Source: a virus
Lineage: Duplodnaviria > Heunggongvirae > Uroviricota > Caudoviricetes
Virus record (IMG/VR): IMGVR_UViG_2695420521_000002
Coordinates: 35,400-99,399 of that record
Length of the DNA: 64,000 bases
Direction: 5' to 3' (one strand)
This document shows positions 2,561 through 49,523 of the stretch, in pieces. Numbering within the stretch: position 1 is the first letter of the stretch; every line of letters starts with the position of its first letter. The notes under the pieces were generated by a model that saw nothing but the letters and a program-made list of their open reading frames with translations, made no database searches and was not told the DNA's origin. The translations under genes were made by a program, and so were the position numbers.

Positions 2561-2641
2561 TTATGCTTCCTTTCGTAAAAACTCTTTTTGACGCGAGGGT
2601 AACGAAAGTCACATGTCAAAAGGCCCGGAACGGGCAAGCAA

Positions 2642-3094
2642 TCAGATACGTGCGGATGTGGCATTACCGTAATGACGGTGCTGACGGGCCACCTTATTGA
2701 AAAGTTGACGCGCCATTACCCAAGGCTGGTGCTCCCGGCGTTCCTTTTCGTCCTGCGTCATATAGAGTTCGTTCTGGAGTTTTTCATCAAACCGGCGCGG
2801 CGCGCGGCTGCGGCGAAAGAATTCAGGATTCAGAGAGTGGATCTGAAATCTGCGTGGGCGTGTACTGTCATCAATCAAAACAGACGAATACTTAGACACA
2901 GCGATAGCCTTTAAGCGCAGATAAACATCGCGCTTATCGACATCCAGATGCGGGTATTCCTTTTCAAGAATTGCTGCGAGTTCTTTCGCTGATAGAAGAG
3001 ATTTAGTGCGGATCATGTAATCCGCAATCTCGTACGATGTTATTCGTGAGTGATTTATTTCCATGAAGTGGCGTCCCTGCCAGTTAAGTAACAT
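2642..3094 (-). CDS. lpa: late promoter activator Lpa (gp10-like)
   Basis: 150-aa ORF between pdcB and pacA; C1 operator-like 17-mer just upstream; synteny with P1 phd-doc-pdcA-pdcB-lpa-pacA-pacB. Confidence 0.65.
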   Translation of the reverse strand: MLLNWQGRHFMEINHSRITSYEIADYMIRTKSLLSAKELAAILEKEYPHLDVDKRDVYLRLKAIAVSKYSSVLIDDSTRPRRFQIHSLNPEFFRRSRAPRRFDEKLQNELYMTQDEKERREHQPWVMARQLFNKVARQHRHYGNATSARI

Positions 3095-4454: not shown

Positions 4455-4818
4455 ACAATCTACGTAACGTGTCGGCGACAGAAGATACAGATATCTCGCC
4501 AGTTGCAGCGCCTACGGTAAGGTCTGCCAGTTCAGGTGAATCAAATACCTGCACCCCGTTACGGCGTAGAAATAGCAGCGCACTGTTTAGCGCGGTACGC
4601 TTATTGGCATCATTGAATATATGCCCTCTCGCTGTAGCCACCAGGTAGGTGGCGGAGACTTCGAAAAGGTCGGTGATCTCTTCGTAGGCAACTCTGGCCT
4701 GAACTCTCCCGATAATGGCCTCTGCCCTACCCGGATCAGACATTCCCGGCAGGCCGCCGTAGCGGCTTATATTCGCATCATGAAGCGCAATAAGTTCTTC
4801 CGGTGATATATGTCTCAT
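4438..4818 (-). CDS. doc: Doc toxin (Fic/Doc family)
   Basis: 126-aa protein [22 protein letters not shown]...; start ATG shares one nucleotide with phd stop (TAATG). Confidence 0.95.
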
Positions 4819-5045
4819 TATCGGTTAACCAGTTCCTTGTTGGTGGAGTCCAGGGTGTCAAACAGGGATGCAAATTCAGCATCCAGCGCCGCTTTTTTGT
4901 AGGCTTCGAAAGTAGCCTTGCTGACAATTACTGCTGGCTCACGGCCTCTGCGGGTGATTTCAACCTCTTCCCCGGCTTCAACATTGTTGAGCACTTCAGA
5001 AAGGTTGCCACGCGCGGTACGGAAGTTAATGGATTGCATAAACAC
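4818..5045 (-). CDS. phd: Phd antitoxin (prevent-host-death); true start probably ATG at 5039
   Basis: Translation [49 protein letters not shown]... matches P1 Phd as I recall it. Confidence 0.95.
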
Positions 5046-5080
5046 CTCGTGTACTCGTTATGTGTACACAATTATAAACT
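5046..5080 (-). promoter_or_regulatory. phd-doc promoter/operator: -10 TATAAT overlapping GTGTAC-type palindromes
   Basis: Minus strand TATAAT (plus 5071-5076) followed by TGTGTACACA (5061-5070) and CGTGTAC (5048-5054). Confidence 0.55.
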
Positions 5081-5439
5081 TCACAGGCATAAAGCACCAG
5101 CACTTTGCAGCTTAAATAACCGGACAATAATCAAATTCCCCACTTCGGGCATCATTGATGACATGAGTGATCACACCAAAAACAGCATTACTGCCCGTAC
5201 ATCCTAGTGTTGACGTGGATACATCCACTATCTTTGGCTATCCGCTGCCCACATGAAGTAGCTCACTGATGGATATCGAAGTAACCTTGCTGAAAATTAC
5301 CGCTAGTTATTCATACTCCGCCATTCCTCCTATGCTTCCATACACCGAGTTCATGTGTTTTTAATCGACAGTAACCATCTGAAACATAGATAAGAGAATC
5401 TAAAACGAAGGTCTACTCTATGCTAAATAGAAAGGGAGG

Positions 5440-5484
5440 CTCAATAGAATAATGGCGTTGAGGAAGTCAACGCCATTATTATTT
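5440..5484. terminator. hairpin terminator downstream of invasin-like gene (bidirectional-looking)
   Basis: 11-bp perfect stem AATGGCGTTGA/TCAACGCCATT (5451-5477) with A/T-rich flanks on both sides. Confidence 0.55.
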
Positions 5485-5510
5485 AAGATTGAGTCATTCT
5501 AAGCAAAAAA

Positions 5511-8500
5511 TTATTCCGCTTCCTTATCATTCGCCTCTACAGCATTAATGGTTATTGTTACCGGTTCCATTTCGTATCCTCCATAGTTTAGAGAGTTGAA
5601 TGTTAATGTATATTTTCCTGGCTTAGTGGTGCTAAATTTGCGTGTAATTTTACCGTTTACAAAATGGTCGGATTTAGAAGGCAGGAATTCATAATCCTCT
5701 TCTTTCACATTGTCAGGTGCCTGAATCTCAACCCACATAGTGCCCCCGACAGGATTATTTTCCGCCATAAGAGTAATCTCCAACGTTGCGGTTGTTGTCC
5801 CATCCGCCACCAGAGATGTAACATCAGACGATGCGGCAAGCACTGCGTTTTTGTAATCCACAACGAATCTGGACTCAGCTGTTTTAGTCGATGTTTGACC
5901 ATTAGTCTGCTTAACTGTAGCCGTCACTGTATACGTCGCAGCCGTTGTTGTTGTAGCAGTGAAAACAGCCAGCCCTTGCTCATCTGTTGTAGCCCCCCCG
6001 TCAGGTGACAGAGTTAATTCTCCCGGACTGGTACTAGCACTGGCACTCAACGTAACCTCACTCCCTTTCAGGAGGTTGTTATTAGCATCAGTTACCGTAA
6101 TCTTGTATGTTTGTTTATCTTTACCATTTGCCAGAGCATTGTTATTAATCACCTCTATGCTAGAAATGGTTGCTGTAGCTTTGTCAGCCACAAACGTAAT
6201 CGTCTTGGTATCTGAAGGCTGCTCATTTTCTGTTGATGCCGTGACCTCATACGATCCAGCAATCACGGAAACTACTTGTAGTTCCGCTTTACCCTCATCG
6301 TTGGTCCTCACCCAAATGTGTTTCCCAGTAATAGGTCTGACCCCCTTTGGTAGATTAAACGTCACCAACTCTCCAGGAACTGCATTGCTATTTTTATCCT
6401 TAACAATAGCCGTCAGCGTAAAGGCATCACTGCCATTTGCTGCTCTTTGAGAGCTATCGTCAACCTGAAGGCTTACCTGCCCAGAACTGGCATCCGCACT
6501 GAACGTCACCGTAACCGTCTTCTGAGCACCATTCACCGAAGCAGTAATATTGTGTTCCCCAGCAACCGTTGACATCAACTCAATATCAGCTTTACCCGCC
6601 GCATTAGTTGTTACCGTATTCCCTGTCTTGCTGGTCACACCCTGCGGTAAAGTCAGCGTGACATTTTGCCCCTGTAACGGGTTGCCATAGGTATCCACGA
6701 CGGTCAGAGTTATCTGGTTAGCAGACTGTCCATTAGCCAGTTGGTTGTTAACCTTCACTGTCATATCACTGATTACTGCCTGAGATGTGTCACCTGCAAC
6801 ATTCAGCACCAGAGGCTGGGCAACGGCATTTTGGCCGTTCACTCGCGGCATCACGATTAATTCACCCGCCGTAGTACCCAGAGAAATCTGCGCAGTCCAT
6901 GTTCCATCGCCATTATCTGTCCAATCTGATACCGACGACCCCGTAGAGGCTGCGCCCGATAATGACGGCGCTTCCGGGGTGATACCTGTTACTGGGTTGT
7001 CATTGGCATCTTTTGCTGACCAGATTGCCGTAAGCGTACCGCCAACCACAGGTTTATCCGAGGTCAGAGTGATAGTTGAGTGTTTGGCATCAATCGGCCC
7101 GGCAACAAACTTCAGCGTTTGTTGCAACAAGCCCAACTGATACTGCTCACTAAAGACACGCACAACAACATCTCCGGCACTGGTCGAAGAAACCGTGGCG
7201 CTGTAAATCCCAGGTTTTATCTCCGAAATAGTGCCAACGGTAACTCCGTTGTTGTCCTGCGGAACAAAGCGCAGACGGCTGGCTTCTCCCGTCACAGCGT
7301 TGCCATCGGTATCTACCGCTGTAAGCGTCAGCGTGTAGGATTGCTGACCATCAGCAGTCACATCATCTGAAAGCTCACTCACACTCAGAGTGGACTTTGT
7401 CACATCCATCATTGTGGCACGCAAATCGGCAGTAACGGTTTTGCTCATACCATCAATGCTCACAGTAATGGTTGCTTCACCTGATTGCGTACCAGTAGTG
7501 AAGACTGACTGATACACCCCTGCTTCAGTTTCGGTGAACTCACCTAATGTTGGCTGTGTCTGTGATTTAGCAGACCTAAGAGCCCGCGTTACAATGTTTC
7601 CGGCAGGTTTAAACGTCAGCTCAGTCTTGATCTGATCTTTCATACCCGTGATTGGTTGTCCCTCGGCATCGCGGAGAGACAGCGCCAGCGTTTTTTGCGA
7701 GCTACCATTAGCAAGCATCTGGATACTGTCCTGTCCGTCAAGCGTTAGCGCAGAACGATCGGCACTCATACTCGCACCGGTAATGACCACCTGTGTCTTT
7801 ACACGCTTCGAGGCATTGCCTTTGTTATCATATGCTACCGCAGAGATCGCGTAATAATTGTCTTTGCCTGCCTGATAAGCCGGGAGCGTCACTTGCCACT
7901 GGTTGCCCTGCCCGGTAATTTTACCGCCCGCAGCCAGCAAAGACGGCGCCTCCCACTGCACATTTTTTAGACCGTGGGTTGCTTTACTGACCACAAGCCC
8001 CAGGGATACCGTCTGCCCGCTCTTACCTTCAATACGCTCAGGCAGAGCAATACGGATCACTTCAGATTTGCGGTATTCAAGAACGATGTTGTTATTACGC
8101 TCAACCAGGTCATAGCGGCTGCCTGTCAGCACACGGCGCTCGCGAATGCTATCCGTATCGAGTTGTTTTTCCAGAGGTTCGCCAATCCGGTAGTTAATTT
8201 CCAGGCCCAAACGGGTGTCATTCTGACCGCTCTTGCCCTGCTTATGCTCTGCGCTCAGGGTCAGAAGAGGTACAGGCGTGTAGTTCACCCCAGCTGAAAT
8301 AGCATGTGGGTTTTTCTGGCGTTTATCTTTACCAAACAGTCCTACCTCATCGCCGTAATACTGTTCATACATCAGGCTTGCGCCAAGCTGTGGCCAGGCC
8401 GGTAAATAGCCCTCAGCACGGATATCCCAGCCATTCGCCGGACGTTCCTGATAATCCTCAACATCCGGCGATTTTTTCCAGCCAGAAGCCCGGATATAAC

Positions 8501-9146
8501 CATTGGCGCTCAGTTTAAGATAATCACGCCAGTATTCCGTACCAATACCAATGCGGGTATGACTACGGGATAAATCATGGTCAATGAAGGTATTCACCCC
8601 CGCCATCCAGTCATTACCTGAGAAATGGCGCCAGCCGAAACCAATATTTGACTGAGTGCGATCGTCAGTGCGATGTATTGCCCCCTGAGTGAACAGCATA
8701 TTTGTCGGCGTGTCATATATCGGATAAAGCATTTCCAGCGAAGAATCCTTCAGCGAGAAATCTTTATCGGCATTCAGTTTGACGCGCGCGGTGCCATATT
8801 TCCCGAGCCACTCCTGGATTTCCTGGGTGGCCTTAGCAGTAGCCATTCCGGTAACAAAGTTGCGAGTCGCATCGCTATCCGGCTGACTGCTTAAAAATTT
8901 ACCGGCATTCGCGGCAACCGACGCGATATTTTTTTCTGCATTATTGTCAGTAGCAACCGCAGTATTTTCCGTAGTTAGACGTGGCAAAGTCGCATTATGC
9001 GCCCGCGCTGCCATTGTCGGTGTAAAAGTGACAGCCAATGGAAAAAGAACCTGAACAGAGATGTTTGCCCATGCCACACATCTAGCCAAGGCGGAATAGC
9101 GGAAACGTTGTTGTTTATAAGTTTTATTTAAACGTAACATTGACAT
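5511..9146 (-). CDS. inverse-autotransporter adhesin, invasin/intimin family, with many tandem bacterial Ig-like domains
   Basis: 1211-aa ORF; N-terminal hydrophobic leader, Trp/Tyr-rich beta-barrel-like region (GFGWRHF, GYIRASGW), then long Thr/Val/Ser-rich repeats typical of Big domains. Confidence 0.75.
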   Translation of the reverse strand: MSMLRLNKTYKQQRFRYSALARCVAWANISVQVLFPLAVTFTPTMAARAHNATLPRLTTENTAVATDNNAEKNIASVAANAGKFLSSQPDSDATRNFVTGMATAKATQEIQEWLGKYGTARVKLNADKDFSLKDSSLEMLYPIYDTPTNMLFTQGAIHRTDDRTQSNIGFGWRHFSGNDWMAGVNTFIDHDLSRSHTRIGIGTEYWRDYLKLSANGYIRASGWKKSPDVEDYQERPANGWDIRAEGYLPAWPQLGASLMYEQYYGDEVGLFGKDKRQKNPHAISAGVNYTPVPLLTLSAEHKQGKSGQNDTRLGLEINYRIGEPLEKQLDTDSIRERRVLTGSRYDLVERNNNIVLEYRKSEVIRIALPERIEGKSGQTVSLGLVVSKATHGLKNVQWEAPSLLAAGGKITGQGNQWQVTLPAYQAGKDNYYAISAVAYDNKGNASKRVKTQVVITGASMSADRSALTLDGQDSIQMLANGSSQKTLALSLRDAEGQPITGMKDQIKTELTFKPAGNIVTRALRSAKSQTQPTLGEFTETEAGVYQSVFTTGTQSGEATITVSIDGMSKTVTADLRATMMDVTKSTLSVSELSDDVTADGQQSYTLTLTAVDTDGNAVTGEASRLRFVPQDNNGVTVGTISEIKPGIYSATVSSTSAGDVVVRVFSEQYQLGLLQQTLKFVAGPIDAKHSTITLTSDKPVVGGTLTAIWSAKDANDNPVTGITPEAPSLSGAASTGSSVSDWTDNGDGTWTAQISLGTTAGELIVMPRVNGQNAVAQPLVLNVAGDTSQAVISDMTVKVNNQLANGQSANQITLTVVDTYGNPLQGQNVTLTLPQGVTSKTGNTVTTNAAGKADIELMSTVAGEHNITASVNGAQKTVTVTFSADASSGQVSLQVDDSSQRAANGSDAFTLTAIVKDKNSNAVPGELVTFNLPKGVRPITGKHIWVRTNDEGKAELQVVSVIAGSYEVTASTENEQPSDTKTITFVADKATATISSIEVINNNALANGKDKQTYKITVTDANNNLLKGSEVTLSASASTSPGELTLSPDGGATTDEQGLAVFTATTTTAATYTVTATVKQTNGQTSTKTAESRFVVDYKNAVLAASSDVTSLVADGTTTATLEITLMAENNPVGGTMWVEIQAPDNVKEEDYEFLPSKSDHFVNGKITRKFSTTKPGKYTLTFNSLNYGGYEMEPVTITINAVEANDKEAE

Positions 9147-42718: not shown

Positions 42719-42743
42719 AAAGCTCCTTCGGGAGCTTTTTTTA
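42719..42743 (+). terminator. intrinsic terminator after structural operon
   Basis: AGCTCC-TTCG-GGAGCT followed by TTTTTTT. Confidence 0.75.
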
Positions 42744-42870
42744 TAACCTTTTTATATAAAAATGCATCGATAACATTGTCTGGAGTTTTATGTTAGATTA
42801 TTAATGTTCTAATAAACTACAATTATTGAGGTAGATGTTTGTGCCTGTACTGTTAAAGGGGGACTCTAAA

Positions 42871-43467
42871 ATGGCTGTGATTCCAATGTCGTACTCCCCG
42901 GGTACTGTCGCTCGTCGATTTTCGATCCTGGACGGAGTTACCATCCAGGGTGTGCTTTACCAGGTTATATGGGATTCCAAAACCCCATTTGCTGCCGTAA
43001 TAGAGGCTGCTCCTTCTGTTATCGATGGTGATATGCGCCATAAGGTTGTCGCTACTCTTGAACTTCAACGTCGCCCACAGCTTGAAGGCGTACTGGTGAG
43101 GAAGTTCTGGGAAGATAACGATGTTGCCCAGATTGAAGGTATCGTGGTTGATGGAATCGTCCGGGATGTCGGTTTAGCCACTTTTGTTTATGAAACCGTA
43201 GCTTCAAAAGCCGGAGTTGTTTTGCTAAGTGACAATGAGCAATACGAAGGCGGAAAGGCTCTTTGGCAGCACATCGCTCGTCGTTCTTCCGAACTAAAAG
43301 TTTTTATCCTGGACACCGATACTGCTCAGTATTACCCATTTGATGGCGAACGTGTTTGCTATGACGGGAAAAGTATTCCTGAATCCGAGATATGGAGTGA
43401 ACATCCGGATCGAAGTAAGCATGGGGTTGTTCTTGTCGCAGAATCCATAACTGGAAAGGCGGCATAG
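42871..43467 (+). CDS. hypothetical protein
   Basis: About 198 aa from ATG 42871 preceded by AAGGGGGA. Confidence 0.45.
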   Translation: MAVIPMSYSPGTVARRFSILDGVTIQGVLYQVIWDSKTPFAAVIEAAPSVIDGDMRHKVVATLELQRRPQLEGVLVRKFWEDNDVAQIEGIVVDGIVRDVGLATFVYETVASKAGVVLLSDNEQYEGGKALWQHIARRSSELKVFILDTDTAQYYPFDGERVCYDGKSIPESEIWSEHPDRSKHGVVLVAESITGKAA

Positions 43468-43646
43468 CAGTAAAAAATTCCTTGCTCCTTGACAGAGGAG
43501 AGGATTAATCTAAGTACGCTAAGCATAGGTATGGCCCCGGTTAATGTTAAGCGTTGTGCGGGACGCATAATGTTTACTGGGGCTTTCTTTTACCTATTTT
43601 GGGATAATCCTGAATTCCGTAGTATTTGGCATCGGCTGCGGCTACA

Positions 43647-43898
43647 TCAGCGTTTGACTCTATTTCTATAGAAATCACCTGGAAGGGTGAATATCCACAT
43701 CAGAAGAAACGTTGCAGCAAACATGATCCCTAATGGCCAGAATATGCCAAAAAAAATCATTATCCAAAAACGATCCCACCAGGCCATTTCTGCATTAGCT
43801 CGCAAAATATATCGACTTAATGCGTATATCAGCCCACCGATTAGTATATAGATGGGAATAGATACCAGGATAGTCATAGCGTTAGTCTCAATGAGCAT
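43647..43898 (-). CDS. small integral membrane protein
   Basis: 83 aa with two hydrophobic helices. Confidence 0.4.
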   Translation of the reverse strand: MLIETNAMTILVSIPIYILIGGLIYALSRYILRANAEMAWWDRFWIMIFFGIFWPLGIMFAATFLLMWIFTLPGDFYRNRVKR

Positions 43899-43957
43899 AA
43901 CGAATATCGCCAGAGCAATGTATAAATCCCTCTGCGCCGGGCAGAGGGACTAAATAG

Positions 43958-44473
43958 TTAAAATCGGTAACCGACACCAAGCATCCAAATGCTATTGCTT
44001 AGATCACCTGGTTTAGAACGTTCATACGAGAGATCAACTGCAAACTGCGGAGCTGGGTTAAATTGAAGCCCAAGTCCATAAGCAAAATCGGTTCCAAAGC
44101 CAGCATATGACTGTCCATTCAGTTTTGCTGTTGCATCCGCATGGCTTAAACCCACCAAACCGTATGCACTCAGCAATTCATTGAATCTGTATGATGGACC
44201 AAAAGTAAATGAGGCATACTCAACCTTGGCTTTGGCGGCATTCCATAGGTTTGTGTTTGACTTTTCGTAAGTGAGCGAAGCTAATCCACCCCACGTAGGA
44301 TCCATTTCGTAGCGATATTTAATATTCACGCCTTTTGGATCTTTTATATCTCCGCCTTTAATCGTTGCGCTTCCTTGGGCAAAGTCTAAAGAAAGAGTGT
44401 GCTGATATGCGGAGGCAGTCCCAGCAACCCCTAGGGCAACAGCCAGAAGGGTCGTTAAAACTACTTTTTTCAT
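43958..44473 (-). CDS. Ail/Lom/OmpX/PagC-family outer-membrane beta-barrel protein
   Basis: 171 aa; signal peptide; NIKYRYE, GPSYRFNE, YGLGLQFNP, DLSYERS, C-terminal GVGYRF closely parallel E. coli OmpX. Confidence 0.8.
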   Translation of the reverse strand: MKKVVLTTLLAVALGVAGTASAYQHTLSLDFAQGSATIKGGDIKDPKGVNIKYRYEMDPTWGGLASLTYEKSNTNLWNAAKAKVEYASFTFGPSYRFNELLSAYGLVGLSHADATAKLNGQSYAGFGTDFAYGLGLQFNPAPQFAVDLSYERSKPGDLSNSIWMLGVGYRF

Positions 44474-44555
44474 GGAAAACGGTACCTATCAAAACGTTAA
44501 TAATACTGGTGACAAAATAGTGTGCATTGTGCGTTAAATGCACGTAAAGAGTTTA

Positions 44556-45398
44556 TCATCCGCGAAAACCTGTAGGAATATAAAATTCCTTTTCTTTTCG
44601 TGTAGATAGGACCATATTCAGAGCTTCGTTTACCGTCATGCAGTGAGGCAGATTATCGAAGTTTGATACTCCACCAACTTCAGGTGAACGCTTGTTCTTC
44701 AGGTAAGCATATTTCCGCGCTGCCGCCTCTACTTTCTGCTTGAACTCATGTTTTTGAGAGCGTTTTTTGGATAACCGCAGATTGTCAGCCTTTGCTTTTG
44801 CCTTAGCGATCCATGAAGTCAATTTTTTGAGGCTGGTCGTTCCGGCACCGCCGGAAACTGATCTTTTTGTTTTTTTAACTTGTGACTTCTTATTCTTTAT
44901 TGCCACGTCATCCTGACAGGGGGAGGGGGTATCATTTTGACATGGGGGTGTGGATAAAAAATCAAATAAAGCCAATGCCTTAGCGAGAACAGCTTTAACC
45001 TTGGTTGCGGCTGAAGAGATCTTTAATTTGCTTTCAATTAGCGCATTTTTGGCTTGTTGTGCGAAGGCCAAAAAGGATGGGGTAAACCGGTACAGGTTAG
45101 CGCGACGTTCACGGTGATCGCCGATAACAATCTCTACTGACAGGATTCCTTTGTTTACAGCTTCACGGAATGCACGAACGACGGTTGATTGGCTATAACC
45201 AGTTTCTGCCGCGATCAGGCGGTGAGGCTTGTGAATGAAGTATTCACTGGTTGTTGCCGCGAGATTTGCACATTGCGACAGGATATGCCCGGCGCTACGG
45301 GATAGACCGGAGTGTGTTACAAAGCAGGCCAATTCATAGCCAGAAAAAGTAAAATCGCTCATCGTTATACAGCTCAGGAAAGTGACTTTAGCCAGCAT
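44556..45398 (-). CDS. repL: lytic replication initiator RepL-like protein
   Basis: 280-aa ORF immediately downstream of kilA under the same operator; size and position as in P1. Confidence 0.65.
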   Translation of the reverse strand: MLAKVTFLSCITMSDFTFSGYELACFVTHSGLSRSAGHILSQCANLAATTSEYFIHKPHRLIAAETGYSQSTVVRAFREAVNKGILSVEIVIGDHRERRANLYRFTPSFLAFAQQAKNALIESKLKISSAATKVKAVLAKALALFDFLSTPPCQNDTPSPCQDDVAIKNKKSQVKKTKRSVSGGAGTTSLKKLTSWIAKAKAKADNLRLSKKRSQKHEFKQKVEAAARKYAYLKNKRSPEVGGVSNFDNLPHCMTVNEALNMVLSTRKEKEFYIPTGFRG

Positions 45399-45427
45399 TA
45401 CAATGCTGGTGGTTCTTACTACGTCTG

Positions 45428-46228
45428 TTAGCGCGTTGCCGCGACAGGTACCAGCACACCAGCATCAAGCAATCGCTTCATCAGCCACTGCTGACCTTTG
45501 CCGGTTATACGAGTCGTGAAAGAAATCCTGCTTCCATTGCTTGTATCGATCACGGTTTCTTTAAGGGTGAAATACCCACGGGATATGTATTCTTGTTTGG
45601 GGACGTTCCTGCGTTCACCGGTTGCGATCAGAATTCCGTTATCACGCAACCAGGTGAAGAGATAGTTTTGGCCCAGGCCGAGCACTTTGGCATAGTTGCC
45701 GATTAGAACCCCGCTGGCGGTAGCAACGCGTTCGGCGAATTCGACTTTAGGTGCATCCATAAGCATTTTTTGCTCCAGCCGTTGCTTTTGCTCTGCCAGG
45801 TCGGCAGCCAAACGGAGAGCTTCAGGGAGACTCTGCGGAATAGCTGGTTGTAATCTTCCGGCTCGATAGTCGATAAATGTCTGGTTTACCTTCAGCCGAA
45901 ACGCGGGAGAAATCCAGCCTGCGTACTCCACAGCGAGCAATTCATGGGCAAAAGTGCCGCCGCCACGGCCTTCGAACGAAACTATGCAATTCTGCATAGT
46001 TTCTTTTTCAAGCTCTTCGATGAGCTGTTTGGCTGACAGCGTTCTTAGCCATTGAGCTGGCGCTTTATGGGTACCGAGTCCGCTTGCTCTGTGTAGAGCA
46101 TTAAGGTTGTAACGGCCAGCGCGGTCGGTCGTAATTTCAACACCACAAATAACAGGCAGAGTGGTTGAAGGATCGACATTTTGATGAAGGTTTGATATAT
46201 TCATATCTGCATTGAGTGTTTGTTGCAT
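45428..46228 (-). CDS. kilA: KilA protein (KilA-N domain plus antirepressor-type C-terminal domain)
   Basis: 266-aa ORF; C-terminal half homologous to C-terminal part of adjacent ant. Confidence 0.75.
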   Translation of the reverse strand: MQQTLNADMNISNLHQNVDPSTTLPVICGVEITTDRAGRYNLNALHRASGLGTHKAPAQWLRTLSAKQLIEELEKETMQNCIVSFEGRGGGTFAHELLAVEYAGWISPAFRLKVNQTFIDYRAGRLQPAIPQSLPEALRLAADLAEQKQRLEQKMLMDAPKVEFAERVATASGVLIGNYAKVLGLGQNYLFTWLRDNGILIATGERRNVPKQEYISRGYFTLKETVIDTSNGSRISFTTRITGKGQQWLMKRLLDAGVLVPVAATR

Positions 46229-46392: not shown

Positions 46393-47427
46393 TTAACCTA
46401 TTGCTACTGGTTTTAACAAACCAGCATCAAGTAGCTTGCGAGTTAACCACTGCTGGCCTTTACCCGTTAATTGGGGCGTCAGCCGTATCTGATAGCCATT
46501 TTCATCATCCAGCACCACTTCTTTCACCGTGAAATACCCGGCGTTAATGTACTGCTGGCGCGGTACGTTTTTGCGCGCACCAAAAGCCATGAGAATGCCG
46601 TTCTGGCGCAACCATGAGAAAAGGGCGTTTTGCTTAAGTCCAACGACCTTTGCAAAGTTCCCGATCAGGATTCCATTAGCCACTGATACCCGGTCGGCAA
46701 AATCGACTTTAGGGGCAGCGGCCACCAGCTGTTGTTCCAGCTGCATTTTCTGTTCTGCCAACTCGGCAGCCAGGCGTAGAGCTTCTGGTAATGTTTGGGG
46801 GATCTATGGGGTAGGGGAGTTTGCCTGCTGCAATTCTTCCAGTTTGTCGATCAGCGAACGGCGGACCGCTTTTGACTCGCGCGCGGCAACTCGCAGAGCT
46901 TGTTTGTAGGTCATGGTTATAATATCTATTTCTGCGCCGTTTTTTTGACCTACGAAAATTTCGTAGGTTTCTCCTTCAAGCTCATCCTTAACTCTGGCAA
47001 TGAAATCATTGTTGCGAACTGGTTTTTCGCTACATAATTTCCGTGCCTCATTGACCATCTTCAACAATGTTTGGCTGTCGATTGTGTCTCCGGTGTTGGG
47101 GATGACATTCAGGGCTGGTGCTGGCGTAGCTGAAGCAACAGGTGCTGGTTTTTCAACATTTAAATTATTACCGGTCATTCTATGTGCCTCCTTTCTCATT
47201 TCTGCTGCCACTGTTGCGTAACGTAGACGTCCTTGTTCAATCAAATAATCCCTGATCTCGGCTATCAGTAGCCTGTTGATCACAGCCTTATCTGTTCGGG
47301 TATAAAAACGTCTGGTTATCATGAAATAGTTGGCAATTGCGCCGGGGATCTCCCGTGTCGGCATACAGGTTGTATGCAAAGCGATCGCTTCGGCTATTTC
47401 ATTACGGGTGACGAGAGGTGTTTTCAT
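46393..47427 (-). pseudogene. ant: antirepressor gene ant interrupted by a single in-frame TAG (amber) codon at 46804-46806
   Basis: ORFs 46804-47427 (207 aa) and 46393-46761 share one frame; homology to KilA C-terminal domain continues across the stop (...ANSPTP*IPQTLPEALRLAAELAEQK...). Confidence 0.65.
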
Positions 47428-47975: not shown

Positions 47976-48072
47976 TAATTGTATAATAAATACATAAATG
48001 GATCTAATAACCTCTTTTTTTTAAAGGCGAAAATATGTACCCTAAATGGGTTATAAGGCAGGTGAGGTTATA

Positions 48073-48711
48073 ATGAGAAAACTATTACTACCGTTATTAT
48101 TTATGGCTGGGACTGTTAATGCAGCATCAAGTGTAAAGGAGATTTGTACCGACTACACGAAATACCTTGGGCACGTTTACGGTTTCACTGTCAGTCAAGA
48201 CGGCAAGATGAAAAAAGCTCTCCAGAATGATATGACGCGCTTAAGTTTGTCTGAAGCAATGGTTCAGCAAGAAATATATAAGGTTGCGACAGATGATGCT
48301 GCAAAAATGTATTATTCGAAATTTCTTAATCCTAATCTTAATGAATATAACCGTTCGGCTTTTAATCAGATGGTAGCGTATTGTGAAACTGCACCAGATA
48401 TGATGATTCCTAGTTGGGCTGTATTAGTGGCTAATGGAAAAATTCGCAAAGAAGACCAAGGAAAATCTTTAAGTAGCTATATAAATAGCGAACAATTTCT
48501 GAATGCGCGTGGCATGCGCACTCAAAATACTCAAGGTGCGCTTGAGCGGAGGGCTTTAGGGAGTGCTGATGCAAATGATACTGATAATTTGACCCCAGGA
48601 ATAAAAAAATGTGTTGAAACTAAGTTAGCTCTAATGAAACGGGACAGCCCTAACATTCCTGTTTCACAACTTACCGCTACGGCAACTAGTCTCTGCAAAG
48701 ACGGGCTTTAA
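48073..48711 (+). CDS. secreted/periplasmic hypothetical protein (candidate superinfection-exclusion Sim-like factor)
   Basis: About 212 aa from ATG 48073; signal peptide MRKLLLPLLFMAGTVNA; AT-rich gene next to immI. Confidence 0.45.
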   Translation: MRKLLLPLLFMAGTVNAASSVKEICTDYTKYLGHVYGFTVSQDGKMKKALQNDMTRLSLSEAMVQQEIYKVATDDAAKMYYSKFLNPNLNEYNRSAFNQMVAYCETAPDMMIPSWAVLVANGKIRKEDQGKSLSSYINSEQFLNARGMRTQNTQGALERRALGSADANDTDNLTPGIKKCVETKLALMKRDSPNIPVSQLTATATSLCKDGL

Positions 48712-48740
48712 ATGTAAAGATATTCGAAGGATAGTGATAA

Positions 48741-49523
48741 GTGAAAAAATTAATGTTTAAACTATTGTTGCCGTTTGCTTTTGTTAGCAGCTATTCATTT
48801 GCAAATTCAATAGCTATTCCTAATGAGTATTCTGTTTCCGAGAAGGACTATAATTTAGTCAGAAACTATATGGTATCTGCTTCGCTTGCATATACTATGA
48901 ATACGAAAGCTACTGTTTTTAGCTTGCCATCAGATATTGTTGATTCATTCAAGAAAAATGAAATAGCAGCCTTAGATGAATGGAGTCAAACTTCTAGAAT
49001 TTGGGGTAAGATCGAAAGAATAACATTGTCTAATGGGTATCCTGTTATTGAGCTTGTAAGCCCAGGACAAGCAAAATCGTCTTTGAACTATATAAGATTA
49101 GAAGATACGACTGGCAACAGTCACATAGTAAAAGAACTAACAAAAGAACAAGAAATTTATTCATTATGTTCTGGTGTTAAATTTAGACAAATTCCCACAT
49201 TTCAGTATTGCTCATTCTATCTTAATCCTATTGAAGCAAATCTGGAATATGTTGGTAACTATTTCATTCCTCAATATAAAGATAATTTAATAAAGACAGT
49301 AGCCGAGAATAGAACGCTACCGATTGGCGCGTTGACAACAAGATTTATCGGGTACATTATGCTTGTTGGTATTTCTAAAAATAAAAACGATATGGAAAAA
49401 ATAAATTCGTGCACTCCATGGAAGAAAGAATGCAAATCGTATTATGAGTCAATAATAGTAAATGCAACAAAATACTATGCCGATAATGCGAAAGGCTTGG
49501 CTGATTATCTTGAAAAGCTTTAA
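48741..49523 (+). CDS. secreted/periplasmic hypothetical protein (candidate Sim-like factor)
   Basis: 260 aa; signal peptide MKKLMFKLLLPFAFVSSYSFA; AT-rich. Confidence 0.45.
   Translation: MKKLMFKLLLPFAFVSSYSFANSIAIPNEYSVSEKDYNLVRNYMVSASLAYTMNTKATVFSLPSDIVDSFKKNEIAALDEWSQTSRIWGKIERITLSNGYPVIELVSPGQAKSSLNYIRLEDTTGNSHIVKELTKEQEIYSLCSGVKFRQIPTFQYCSFYLNPIEANLEYVGNYFIPQYKDNLIKTVAENRTLPIGALTTRFIGYIMLVGISKNKNDMEKINSCTPWKKECKSYYESIIVNATKYYADNAKGLADYLEKL

Follow-up and report, generated by a model that had tools for sequence, protein, structure and literature searches.

A predicted Ail/Lom/OmpX-family outer-membrane barrel gene in the variable slot downstream of repL of a P1-like phage-plasmid

Among outer-membrane proteins of the Ail/Lom/OmpX family, the functional precedents are complement resistance and adhesion or invasion for Ail, Rck and PagC, and adhesion for Lom. 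Ail binds heparin, laminin, fibronectin and complement regulators.

E. albertii, E. coli and Salmonella frequently harbour P1-like phage-plasmids, which are monitored because they can carry resistance and virulence genes. In P1, repL is followed by the C1 operator Orlf, by rlfA (234 aa, DUF3800) and rlfB (154 aa), and then by pmgF on the opposite strand. [quoted passage not shown] Here we describe the corresponding slot in a stretch of 64,000 nucleotides, referred to in its entirety as the window, in which two other genes follow repL, one for a predicted Ail/Lom/OmpX-family barrel protein and one for a small two-helix membrane protein.

The repL-downstream slot and its occupants

Nucleotide similarity and gene content identify the window as a P1-like phage-plasmid, with Salmonella phage SJ46 as its closest match. 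Positions 43400-45500 are 96.4% identical to SJ46 over the full length, and repL, which matches phrog_2418 at 1e-149, shares 96-97.5% nucleotide identity with the repL genes of SJ46, P1 and P7. The P1 and P7 match within 43400-45500 is limited to the repL-kilA part, from position 44616 onward, at 97.5%. Elsewhere in the window, P1-type features include C4 antisense RNA and three tRNAs, along with genes for sheath, tube, Ban helicase and RepA. Eleven C1-operator-like sites (consensus ATTGCTCTAATAAATTT, <=3 mismatches) are present in the window, which also encodes an FdeC-like inverse-autotransporter adhesin.

Along the minus strand, repL is followed by an 82-bp spacer, a 171-aa ORF, 59 bp and an 83-aa ORF (Table 1), confirming the position downstream of repL, the coordinates and the ORF lengths given in the initial annotation. 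The flanks conserved with P1 end at 42741, just past bplB, and restart at 44616, within the last ~20 codons of repL, so the sequence between them is a replaced segment. Within this block lie a PmgF-like gene, the small ORF, the gene for the Ail/Lom protein and the diverged ~20 codons at the end of repL. The PmgF-like gene encodes a 210-aa protein with 43% identity to P1 PmgF (5e-16, BLASTP) and further matches to phrog_7522 and phrog_7349. Its ORF is convergent with the small ORF. An Rfam search of the region at E <= 1 returned nothing except two sub-threshold chance matches near 42.7-42.9 kb.

Table 1. Coordinates of the features in and around the repL-downstream slot (window positions)
Feature	Position	Strand	Basis or location
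Variable block vs P1	42742..44615		BLASTN of window vs P1, SJ46 and variant loci
210-aa protein, PmgF-homologous N-terminal part plus ~130 aa extension	42835..43467	+	BLASTP
Two-TM-helix protein with basic C-terminal tail, 83 aa (76 aa from Met8)	43647..43898	-	phrog_3772, hydropathy
ATTGCTCTGGCGATATT, 11/17 match to P1 C1-operator consensus	43903..43919	-	Just upstream of small ORF
Strong hairpin with 11-bp stem, 5-nt loop and U-rich tail, 7 nt past the Ail/Lom stop	43925..43951	-	Folding
Predicted Ail/Lom/OmpX-family 8-stranded outer-membrane beta-barrel, 171-aa precursor, 149-aa mature	43958..44473	-	Pfam, PDB, AF2, Foldseek
Predicted Sec signal peptide, codons 1-22, MKKVVLTTLLAVALGVAGTASA, predicted cleavage between ASA and YQ	44408..44473	-	Direct reading and hydropathy
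Spacer from repL stop to Ail/Lom start, 82 bp	44474..44555	-	Weak hairpin inside
Weak terminator-like hairpin, GTGCATT-N8-AATGCAC then ACTATTTTGT	44522..44543	-	Terminator scan
repL, lytic replication initiator, 280 aa	44556..45398	-	Upstream gene, same strand

The occupants of the slot vary among related elements. Variant L006 carries repL, an 81-aa small ORF and hok, variant L003 carries the Ail/Lom gene, the small ORF and hokD, and in variant L004 an IS605-family TnpB truncates the small ORF. The Ail/Lom gene is missing between repL and the small ORF in L006 and L007, and it is missing from P1. The initial annotation placed rlfA and rlfB at the equivalent position in P1, which agrees with the order Orlf-rlfA-rlfB followed by pmgF, and it named the possibility that RlfA and RlfB were the two proteins encoded here. 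This identity is excluded, with no similarity found to either protein.

Family, fold and sequence features of the two proteins

The 171-aa protein matches Pfam PF06316 (Ail_Lom) at 1e-22 (81.3 bits, cut-off 23), PF13505 (OMP_b-brl) at 9e-25 (88.3 bits, cut-off 28.7) and, over its full length, PHROG_108 "Lom outer membrane protein" at 8e-47. Searches of the PDB gave Y. pestis Ail (3QRA) at 4e-29, with the alignment covering residues 26-171, E. coli OmpX at 1e-20 and lambda Lom at 5.5e-14. On these profile scores, the similarity to Ail/Lom/OmpX is far beyond chance, and the family membership claimed by the initial annotation is upheld. An AF2 model built from 25 homologues reached a pLDDT of 86.6 and a pTM of 0.78, predicting eight long strands after an N-terminal helix. 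The best Foldseek matches of the model were Ail 3QRA (TM 0.80/0.89, 41% identity) and OmpX 1QJ9 (TM 0.77/0.88). The predicted fold is a small closed barrel of eight antiparallel transmembrane beta-strands. The same annotation called the gene 'porin-like', an imprecise description, as 8-stranded Ail/OmpX barrels have no channel and are not pores.

The signal peptide reported earlier for the 171-aa ORF was recovered, with an MKK n-region, a 14-residue hydrophobic core (VVLTTLLAVALGVA) and GTASA ahead of the predicted cleavage site before YQ. Residues 2-19 in this region are helical in the AF2 model, and in the alignment the mature protein starts opposite residue 5-6 of mature Ail as crystallised. 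A lipoprotein is excluded, because the signal peptide contains no cysteine. At the opposite end, GVGYRF has the textbook appearance of a C-terminal beta-signal with a final aromatic residue, as used for BAM-dependent insertion, and G166, G168, Y169 and F171 are invariant in the 25-sequence alignment. The quoted motifs NIKYRYE, YGLGLQFNP and GVGYRF are all present and fall in the most conserved columns of the Ail/Lom/OmpX alignment.

The best NCBIfam match, to the OmpX equivalog NF006917, reaches 114.1 bits where the cut-off is 176, and the Rck/PagC complement-resistance equivalog NF011777 gives 78.4 bits where the cut-off is 258. Function cannot be transferred by orthology because both equivalog cut-offs are missed, and orthology to OmpX or Rck is ruled out by these curated thresholds. 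A captured copy of host ompX, or of Salmonella rck or pagC, duplicating a chromosomal function would fit the shared precursor length of 171 aa and the OmpX model being the best NCBIfam match. The sub-threshold scores (114 bits vs 176 for OmpX, 78 vs 258 for Rck), identities of only 35-40% to OmpX, 34% to Rck and 41% to Ail, and a gap of ~45-90% identity in the databases make such a capture very improbable.

A replication-linked function, hinted at by the names rlfA and rlfB, has in its favour only the post-repL position and the original GenBank label of the SJ46 gene, 'replication protein'. That label is a mislabel, with RefSeq now naming the gene product 'Lom outer membrane protein'. A secreted outer-membrane barrel cannot act on DNA, and no similarity to RlfA or RlfB exists. 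A replication role is ruled out by the fold and signal peptide and retains practically no probability.

The 83-aa protein matches phrog_3772 at 2e-41 and contains hydrophobic segments at about residues 8-28 and 44-72, consistent with two transmembrane helices and with the membrane protein already proposed for this ORF. An 81-aa homologue with 44% identity, the same two-helix architecture and a cluster of 396 lies directly after repL in P1-like elements without the barrel gene. The C-terminal halves of the two types are near-identical, while the N-terminal halves have diverged with the helix pattern kept, and a recombination breakpoint is located at window position 43758, inside the 83-aa gene. 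The small ORF is intact in the 11 cassette or hok-variant loci in which its marker motif was found; the search gave no motif in 3 of the 14 loci covered. A profile search of 1.8 billion representative proteins recovered only 9 representatives of the family; the matches were P1-type variants and fragments, plus one marginal 85-aa match (8e-4).

This pattern of conservation indicates that the 83-aa protein is the product of a real gene, from a family restricted to P1-like elements. The small ORF is the older resident of the slot, and the barrel gene was apparently added between repL and the small ORF. The two do not form an obligate pair, because the small ORF is widespread without the barrel gene, and the 83-aa protein is an independent, more widespread slot resident. 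A holin identity for the 83-aa protein, suggested by its two helices, basic tail and paired starts at Met1 and Met8, was rejected: the 81-aa homologue does not keep the second Met, no match to a holin family was obtained, and the lysis genes lie far away.

Distribution, selection and expression signals

The 90% cluster of the 171-aa protein contains 83 members. In PLSDB, 36 plasmids encode the barrel protein at >=90% identity and none at 60-90%, with the next relatives, at 42-46% identity, being Ail/Lom proteins of Arsenophonus, Photorhabdus and Proteus. No protein between about 45% and 90% identity was found in the plasmids, the phages or a 5.8-billion-protein set. By these comparisons, the barrel protein is an isolated, distinct clade of a well-known family. 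SJ46 is the sole carrier of the barrel gene in the phage collection, where 397 lambdoid and Stx-phage Lom genes are 28-33% identical to it. Most carriers are E. albertii plasmids of bird and human origin, joined by the Salmonella SJ46 group and by some E. coli; one copy is integrated in a chromosome, and an IncF plasmid has captured one fragment. The gene lies directly after repL in every carrier examined and is present in ~5% of the plasmids that share any part of the region (36 vs 644). The Arsenophonus copies are inserted between tape-measure and minor-tail genes of prophages, and this location in prophage tail clusters implies that this branch of the family is habitually phage cargo.

The barrel gene is intact in all 12 related loci, with pN/pS values of 0.16-0.35, similar to those of repL, and is under purifying selection. 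All 14 variable residues map to the signal peptide, strands or periplasmic turns, and none of them falls in the predicted extracellular loops. Diversifying selection on the surface loops was rejected, with all four predicted extracellular loops invariant.

Under another explanation, the barrel gene is a decaying or neutral passenger without function, or the 83-aa ORF does not represent a gene. On most plasmids the 83-aa ORF has no PGAP call, both ORFs have weak translation signals, and the barrel gene occurs in only about 5% of region-sharing plasmids. The intact reading frame in 12 of 12 loci at pN/pS comparable to repL, the small ORF being intact wherever its motif was found, and a homologue that keeps its length and two-helix pattern across a 396-member cluster all argue against this explanation and render it improbable.

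The sigma-70 scan found no promoter in the 82-bp spacer and no enrichment (3 sites vs 3.3 expected). The sole sigma-70 candidate, TCTACA-18-TATATT, sits in the 3' end of repL, and manual reading identified a lone TATTAT without a -35 element. No C1 operator (<=3 mismatches) occurs in 43400-44700 among the eleven window sites, and exact matches to the P1 late-promoter motif (from LPsit) are found only at 15631 and 49618, none near the genes studied. The Shine-Dalgarno sequence of the barrel gene is weak. Just upstream of the small ORF, the operator core ATTGCTCT is present within a longer partial match (Table 1), possibly a degenerate Orlf operator or a chance occurrence; it is not significant alone, with about four non-operator copies of this core in the window vs 2.8 expected. 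In the Ail-less variant L006, an Orlf-type operator, ATTGCTCTAATCTGGAG, is found after repL, ahead of the 81-aa ORF.

The stretch containing the strong hairpin downstream of the barrel gene folds at -21.4 kcal/mol (z = -3.27), a value equalled by 0 of 200 shuffles, and allelic variation (GG to TA) is found in its loop alone. This hairpin is the probable intrinsic terminator of the Ail/Lom gene. In the weak hairpin after repL, the allele groups differ by one compensatory C-G to T-A change, with a G-T intermediate, and the folding energy of this hairpin is not better than that of shuffles (z = -0.9). The base composition of the barrel gene (GC 0.442, GC3 0.355) differs modestly from the window (GC 0.469) and the neighbouring genes (GC3 0.43-0.51).

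The barrel gene separates genes that are direct neighbours in related phages and has a probable terminator of its own, two features of a moron. Overall, it resembles a moron that has a terminator but no promoter that could be recognised. Its transcription may arise by read-through from the C1-repressed kilA-repL operon and/or from a weak or activator-dependent promoter.

Probable function and comparison with known systems

The combined evidence makes it likely that the barrel gene is a moron-type accessory gene of a P1-like phage-plasmid, encoding an Ail/Lom/OmpX outer-membrane protein. From what is known of the family, the precursor would be exported by Sec and cut after Ala22, and the barrel would be inserted by the BAM machinery through its C-terminal GVGYRF. 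The mature protein would then form a non-conducting 8-stranded barrel displaying four short loops on the cell surface, and it would alter the surface of the carrier cell to the benefit of the carrier.

By analogy with characterised family members, the most likely role is the binding of host-animal molecules, conferring adhesion and/or complement resistance, although we hold this assignment tentatively. A host-interaction conversion factor is ranked above an adsorption or exclusion role, with no strong phenotype, or some other function, making up the remainder. It is favoured because the carriers are animal-associated pathogens, the loops are conserved and an adhesin gene is found on the element. 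The FdeC-like adhesin in the same window implies that host-adhesion cargo occurs on this element. Co-occurrence of the adhesin with the barrel gene is unsupported, the only other plasmid with the adhesin not being among the barrel-gene carriers. The loops are OmpX-short, with loop 2 shorter than that of Ail by 4 residues, which counts against a host-binding role. E. coli OmpX has no clear virulence or defence phenotype (bioRxiv 10.1101/2025.02.28.640651). Expression in the lysogen, the property that defines a conversion gene, is therefore putative for the barrel gene, given its weak Shine-Dalgarno sequence and a spacer in which neither a sigma-70 promoter nor a C1 operator nor a late-promoter motif was found.

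A less likely alternative is that the barrel protein crowds or masks the outer-membrane surface, such that P1-like or other LPS-core-binding phages adsorb poorly. The P1 receptor is the LPS core, as for T7, which fits this explanation. The product would be made either in the lysogen or early after induction through kilA-repL read-through, and the two-helix inner-membrane protein might add a block to DNA entry. OmpX/OmpA-like 8-stranded proteins were shown in 2025 to block adsorption of T7 and lambda-vir (bioRxiv 10.1101/2025.02.28.640651), and in the same study lambda Lom strongly protected against lambda-vir, with kin protection late in infection being proposed. The genetic setting is also compatible, with the barrel gene lying behind a lytic operon and only a weak hairpin, without a recognisable promoter of its own, and with the same site placed under a C1 operator in P1 and in the Ail-less variant. 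Conversely, the barrel, 83-aa and 210-aa proteins gave no PADLOC match at E <= 0.1, and the small ORF is common without the barrel gene, so the pair is not obligate. E. coli OmpX, with loop lengths like those of the barrel protein, provides no defence (bioRxiv 10.1101/2025.02.28.640651).

A more specific version, which we regard as unlikely, treats the barrel protein, with or without the two-helix protein, as an exclusion device that is activated together with the lytic replicon under C1 control. The action of such a device in phage-committed cells, by LPS-core masking or DNA-entry block against P1-like or LPS-binding phages, is given a similarly low chance. If the exclusion reading is true, Lom-type adsorption block extends to a myovirus-plasmid and the repL-downstream hotspot gains a defined theme.

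The presence in one lineage of a conserved, predicted surface Ail/Lom protein, accompanied in this window by the FdeC-like adhesin, suggests that P1-like elements can alter the encounters of their hosts with animal tissues, serum or other phages. As an adhesin or complement-evasion factor, the favoured host-interaction role, the protein would represent a transferable virulence trait; as an adsorption blocker, it would be relevant to phage therapy and P1 transduction. The gene itself is less new than the initial annotation implied. RefSeq names the SJ46 product as a Lom protein, on dozens of plasmids PGAP annotates it as 'Ail/Lom family outer membrane beta-barrel protein', and the locus is published as variable; a literature search found no paper describing the barrel gene or its function. 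It is an ordinary, database-annotated phage accessory gene at a known hotspot.

Comparison with the P1 slot reveals the same place between bplB and repL, with RlfA and RlfB unrelated to both proteins encoded here. In P1 a consensus C1 operator, Orlf, follows repL, whereas the studied element has none, and only the N-terminal part of P1 PmgF is kept, inside the 210-aa protein.

Among family members, Ail of Y. pestis and Y. enterocolitica (3QRA) is the best solved-structure match, collinear over the whole mature protein and sharing the eight strands, the KYRYE, GLQFNP and GVGYRF blocks and a Sec signal peptide. Ail is chromosomal, and its loop 2 is longer by 4 residues and its loop 3 by 1. OmpX of E. 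coli and other Enterobacteriaceae (1QJ8/1QJ9) has the same precursor length of 171 aa and similarly short loops, but its identity is 35-40% and it is a core chromosomal gene, in contrast to the phage-plasmid cargo described here. Rck and PagC of Salmonella belong to the same family, with the plasmid-borne Rck 34% identical to the barrel protein. The nearest relatives overall are the Ail/Lom proteins of Arsenophonus, Photorhabdus and Proteus, which have full-length similarity but exceed the barrel protein by 7-15 residues, come from different genera and phage types, and are uncharacterised. Lom of lambda and Stx phages is likewise a phage-borne accessory member, with adhesion or exclusion as a possible common role; it is about 206 aa long, with longer loops and 29-33% identity, and its gene is flanked in siphoviruses by the tail genes J and stf, whereas the barrel gene follows repL of a P1-like myovirus-plasmid.

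Contents and mobility of the bplB-repL slot

The variable slot between bplB and repL differs in content among related loci. A hok/hokD type I toxin gene adjoins the small membrane-protein gene in several variants of this hotspot, so the slot gathers small membrane-active genes. Another variant, seen in L004 and also in phage RCS47, has an IS605-family TnpB (orfB of ISEc46 in RCS47) where the Ail/Lom gene would be; this TnpB truncates the small ORF at the recombination breakpoint at window 43758. The cassette with the Ail/Lom gene also occurs in the E. coli ST2747 chromosome record (NZ_CP007393.1, 2.22 Mb), within a P1-like element that adjoins a lambda-type gpJ pseudogene, and as an IS-flanked fragment within a 168-kb conjugative IncF plasmid (NZ_OZ039654.1). 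The Ail/Lom gene is thus able to exit the phage-plasmid context.

The SJ46 Ail/Lom gene (locus L001 4559-5074; KU760857.1 / NC_031129.1) was labelled 'replication protein' in the original GenBank annotation; RefSeq relabelled it 'Lom outer membrane protein', yet retained the note 'RepL'. The 83-aa ORF is left uncalled by PGAP on most plasmids.

Purifying selection on the lengthened PmgF homologue is strong (pN/pS 0.04-0.12). The N-terminal ~65 aa of this protein share 43% identity with P1 PmgF (98 aa), and its C-terminal ~130 aa gave no Pfam match (phrog_7522).

Features of the window and of related loci
Feature	Record	Position	Strand	Remark
Inverse autotransporter, intimin/invasin/FdeC type, 1211 aa	window	5511..9146	-	IAT_beta 6e-109
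YeeE/YedE-type sulphur-transport membrane protein	window	20572..21735	+	PF04143, 3e-40
Glycosyltransferase-like protein	window	21796..22782	-	
SPFH/Band-7 protein	window	24834..25661	-	
PmgF homologue, 210 aa	window	42835..43467	+	N-terminal similarity to P1 PmgF
ant1/ant2 antirepressor homologue	window	46393..47427	-	interrupted by in-frame stop codon
Two ORFs, 221 aa and 260 aa	window	48046..49523	+	P1 simABC position, downstream of c4
hok/hokD type I toxin gene	L003 (CP056621.1)	2617-2772		beside small membrane-protein gene
hok/hokD type I toxin gene	L006	4428-4583		beside small membrane-protein gene
IS605-family TnpB (RNA-guided endonuclease InsQ/TnpB)	L004 (NZ_CP026475.1)	4604-5773		in place of Ail/Lom gene

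Further variable regions and cargo

The simABC position is a further variable region: neither ORF there has a Pfam match, and SJ46 carries a different pair again, a methyltransferase and a membrane protein. The ant1/ant2 gene is whole in SJ46 and P1 (~347 aa), whereas its homologue in the window is split into two ORFs of 207 aa and 122 aa by the stop at 46804-46806 (...ANSPTP*IPQTLPEAL...). Apparently non-P1 cargo occupies window 20572..22782, neighbouring the Ban helicase and the SPFH/Band-7 protein.

An FdeC-like adhesin on the same element

The P1-like element bearing the Ail/Lom gene also carries an FdeC-like gene, flanked by the lpa/pdcB side and a 3'-phosphatase gene, whose product matches four Big_1 and six Invasin_D3 stretches. 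An adhesin of this type borne by a phage-plasmid may be of greater note than the Ail/Lom gene. The sole plasmid in PLSDB with 98% identity to the product is E. albertii p2RM9976 (IncY, P1-like), and chromosomal E. coli fdeC shows ~82% identity to the adhesin.
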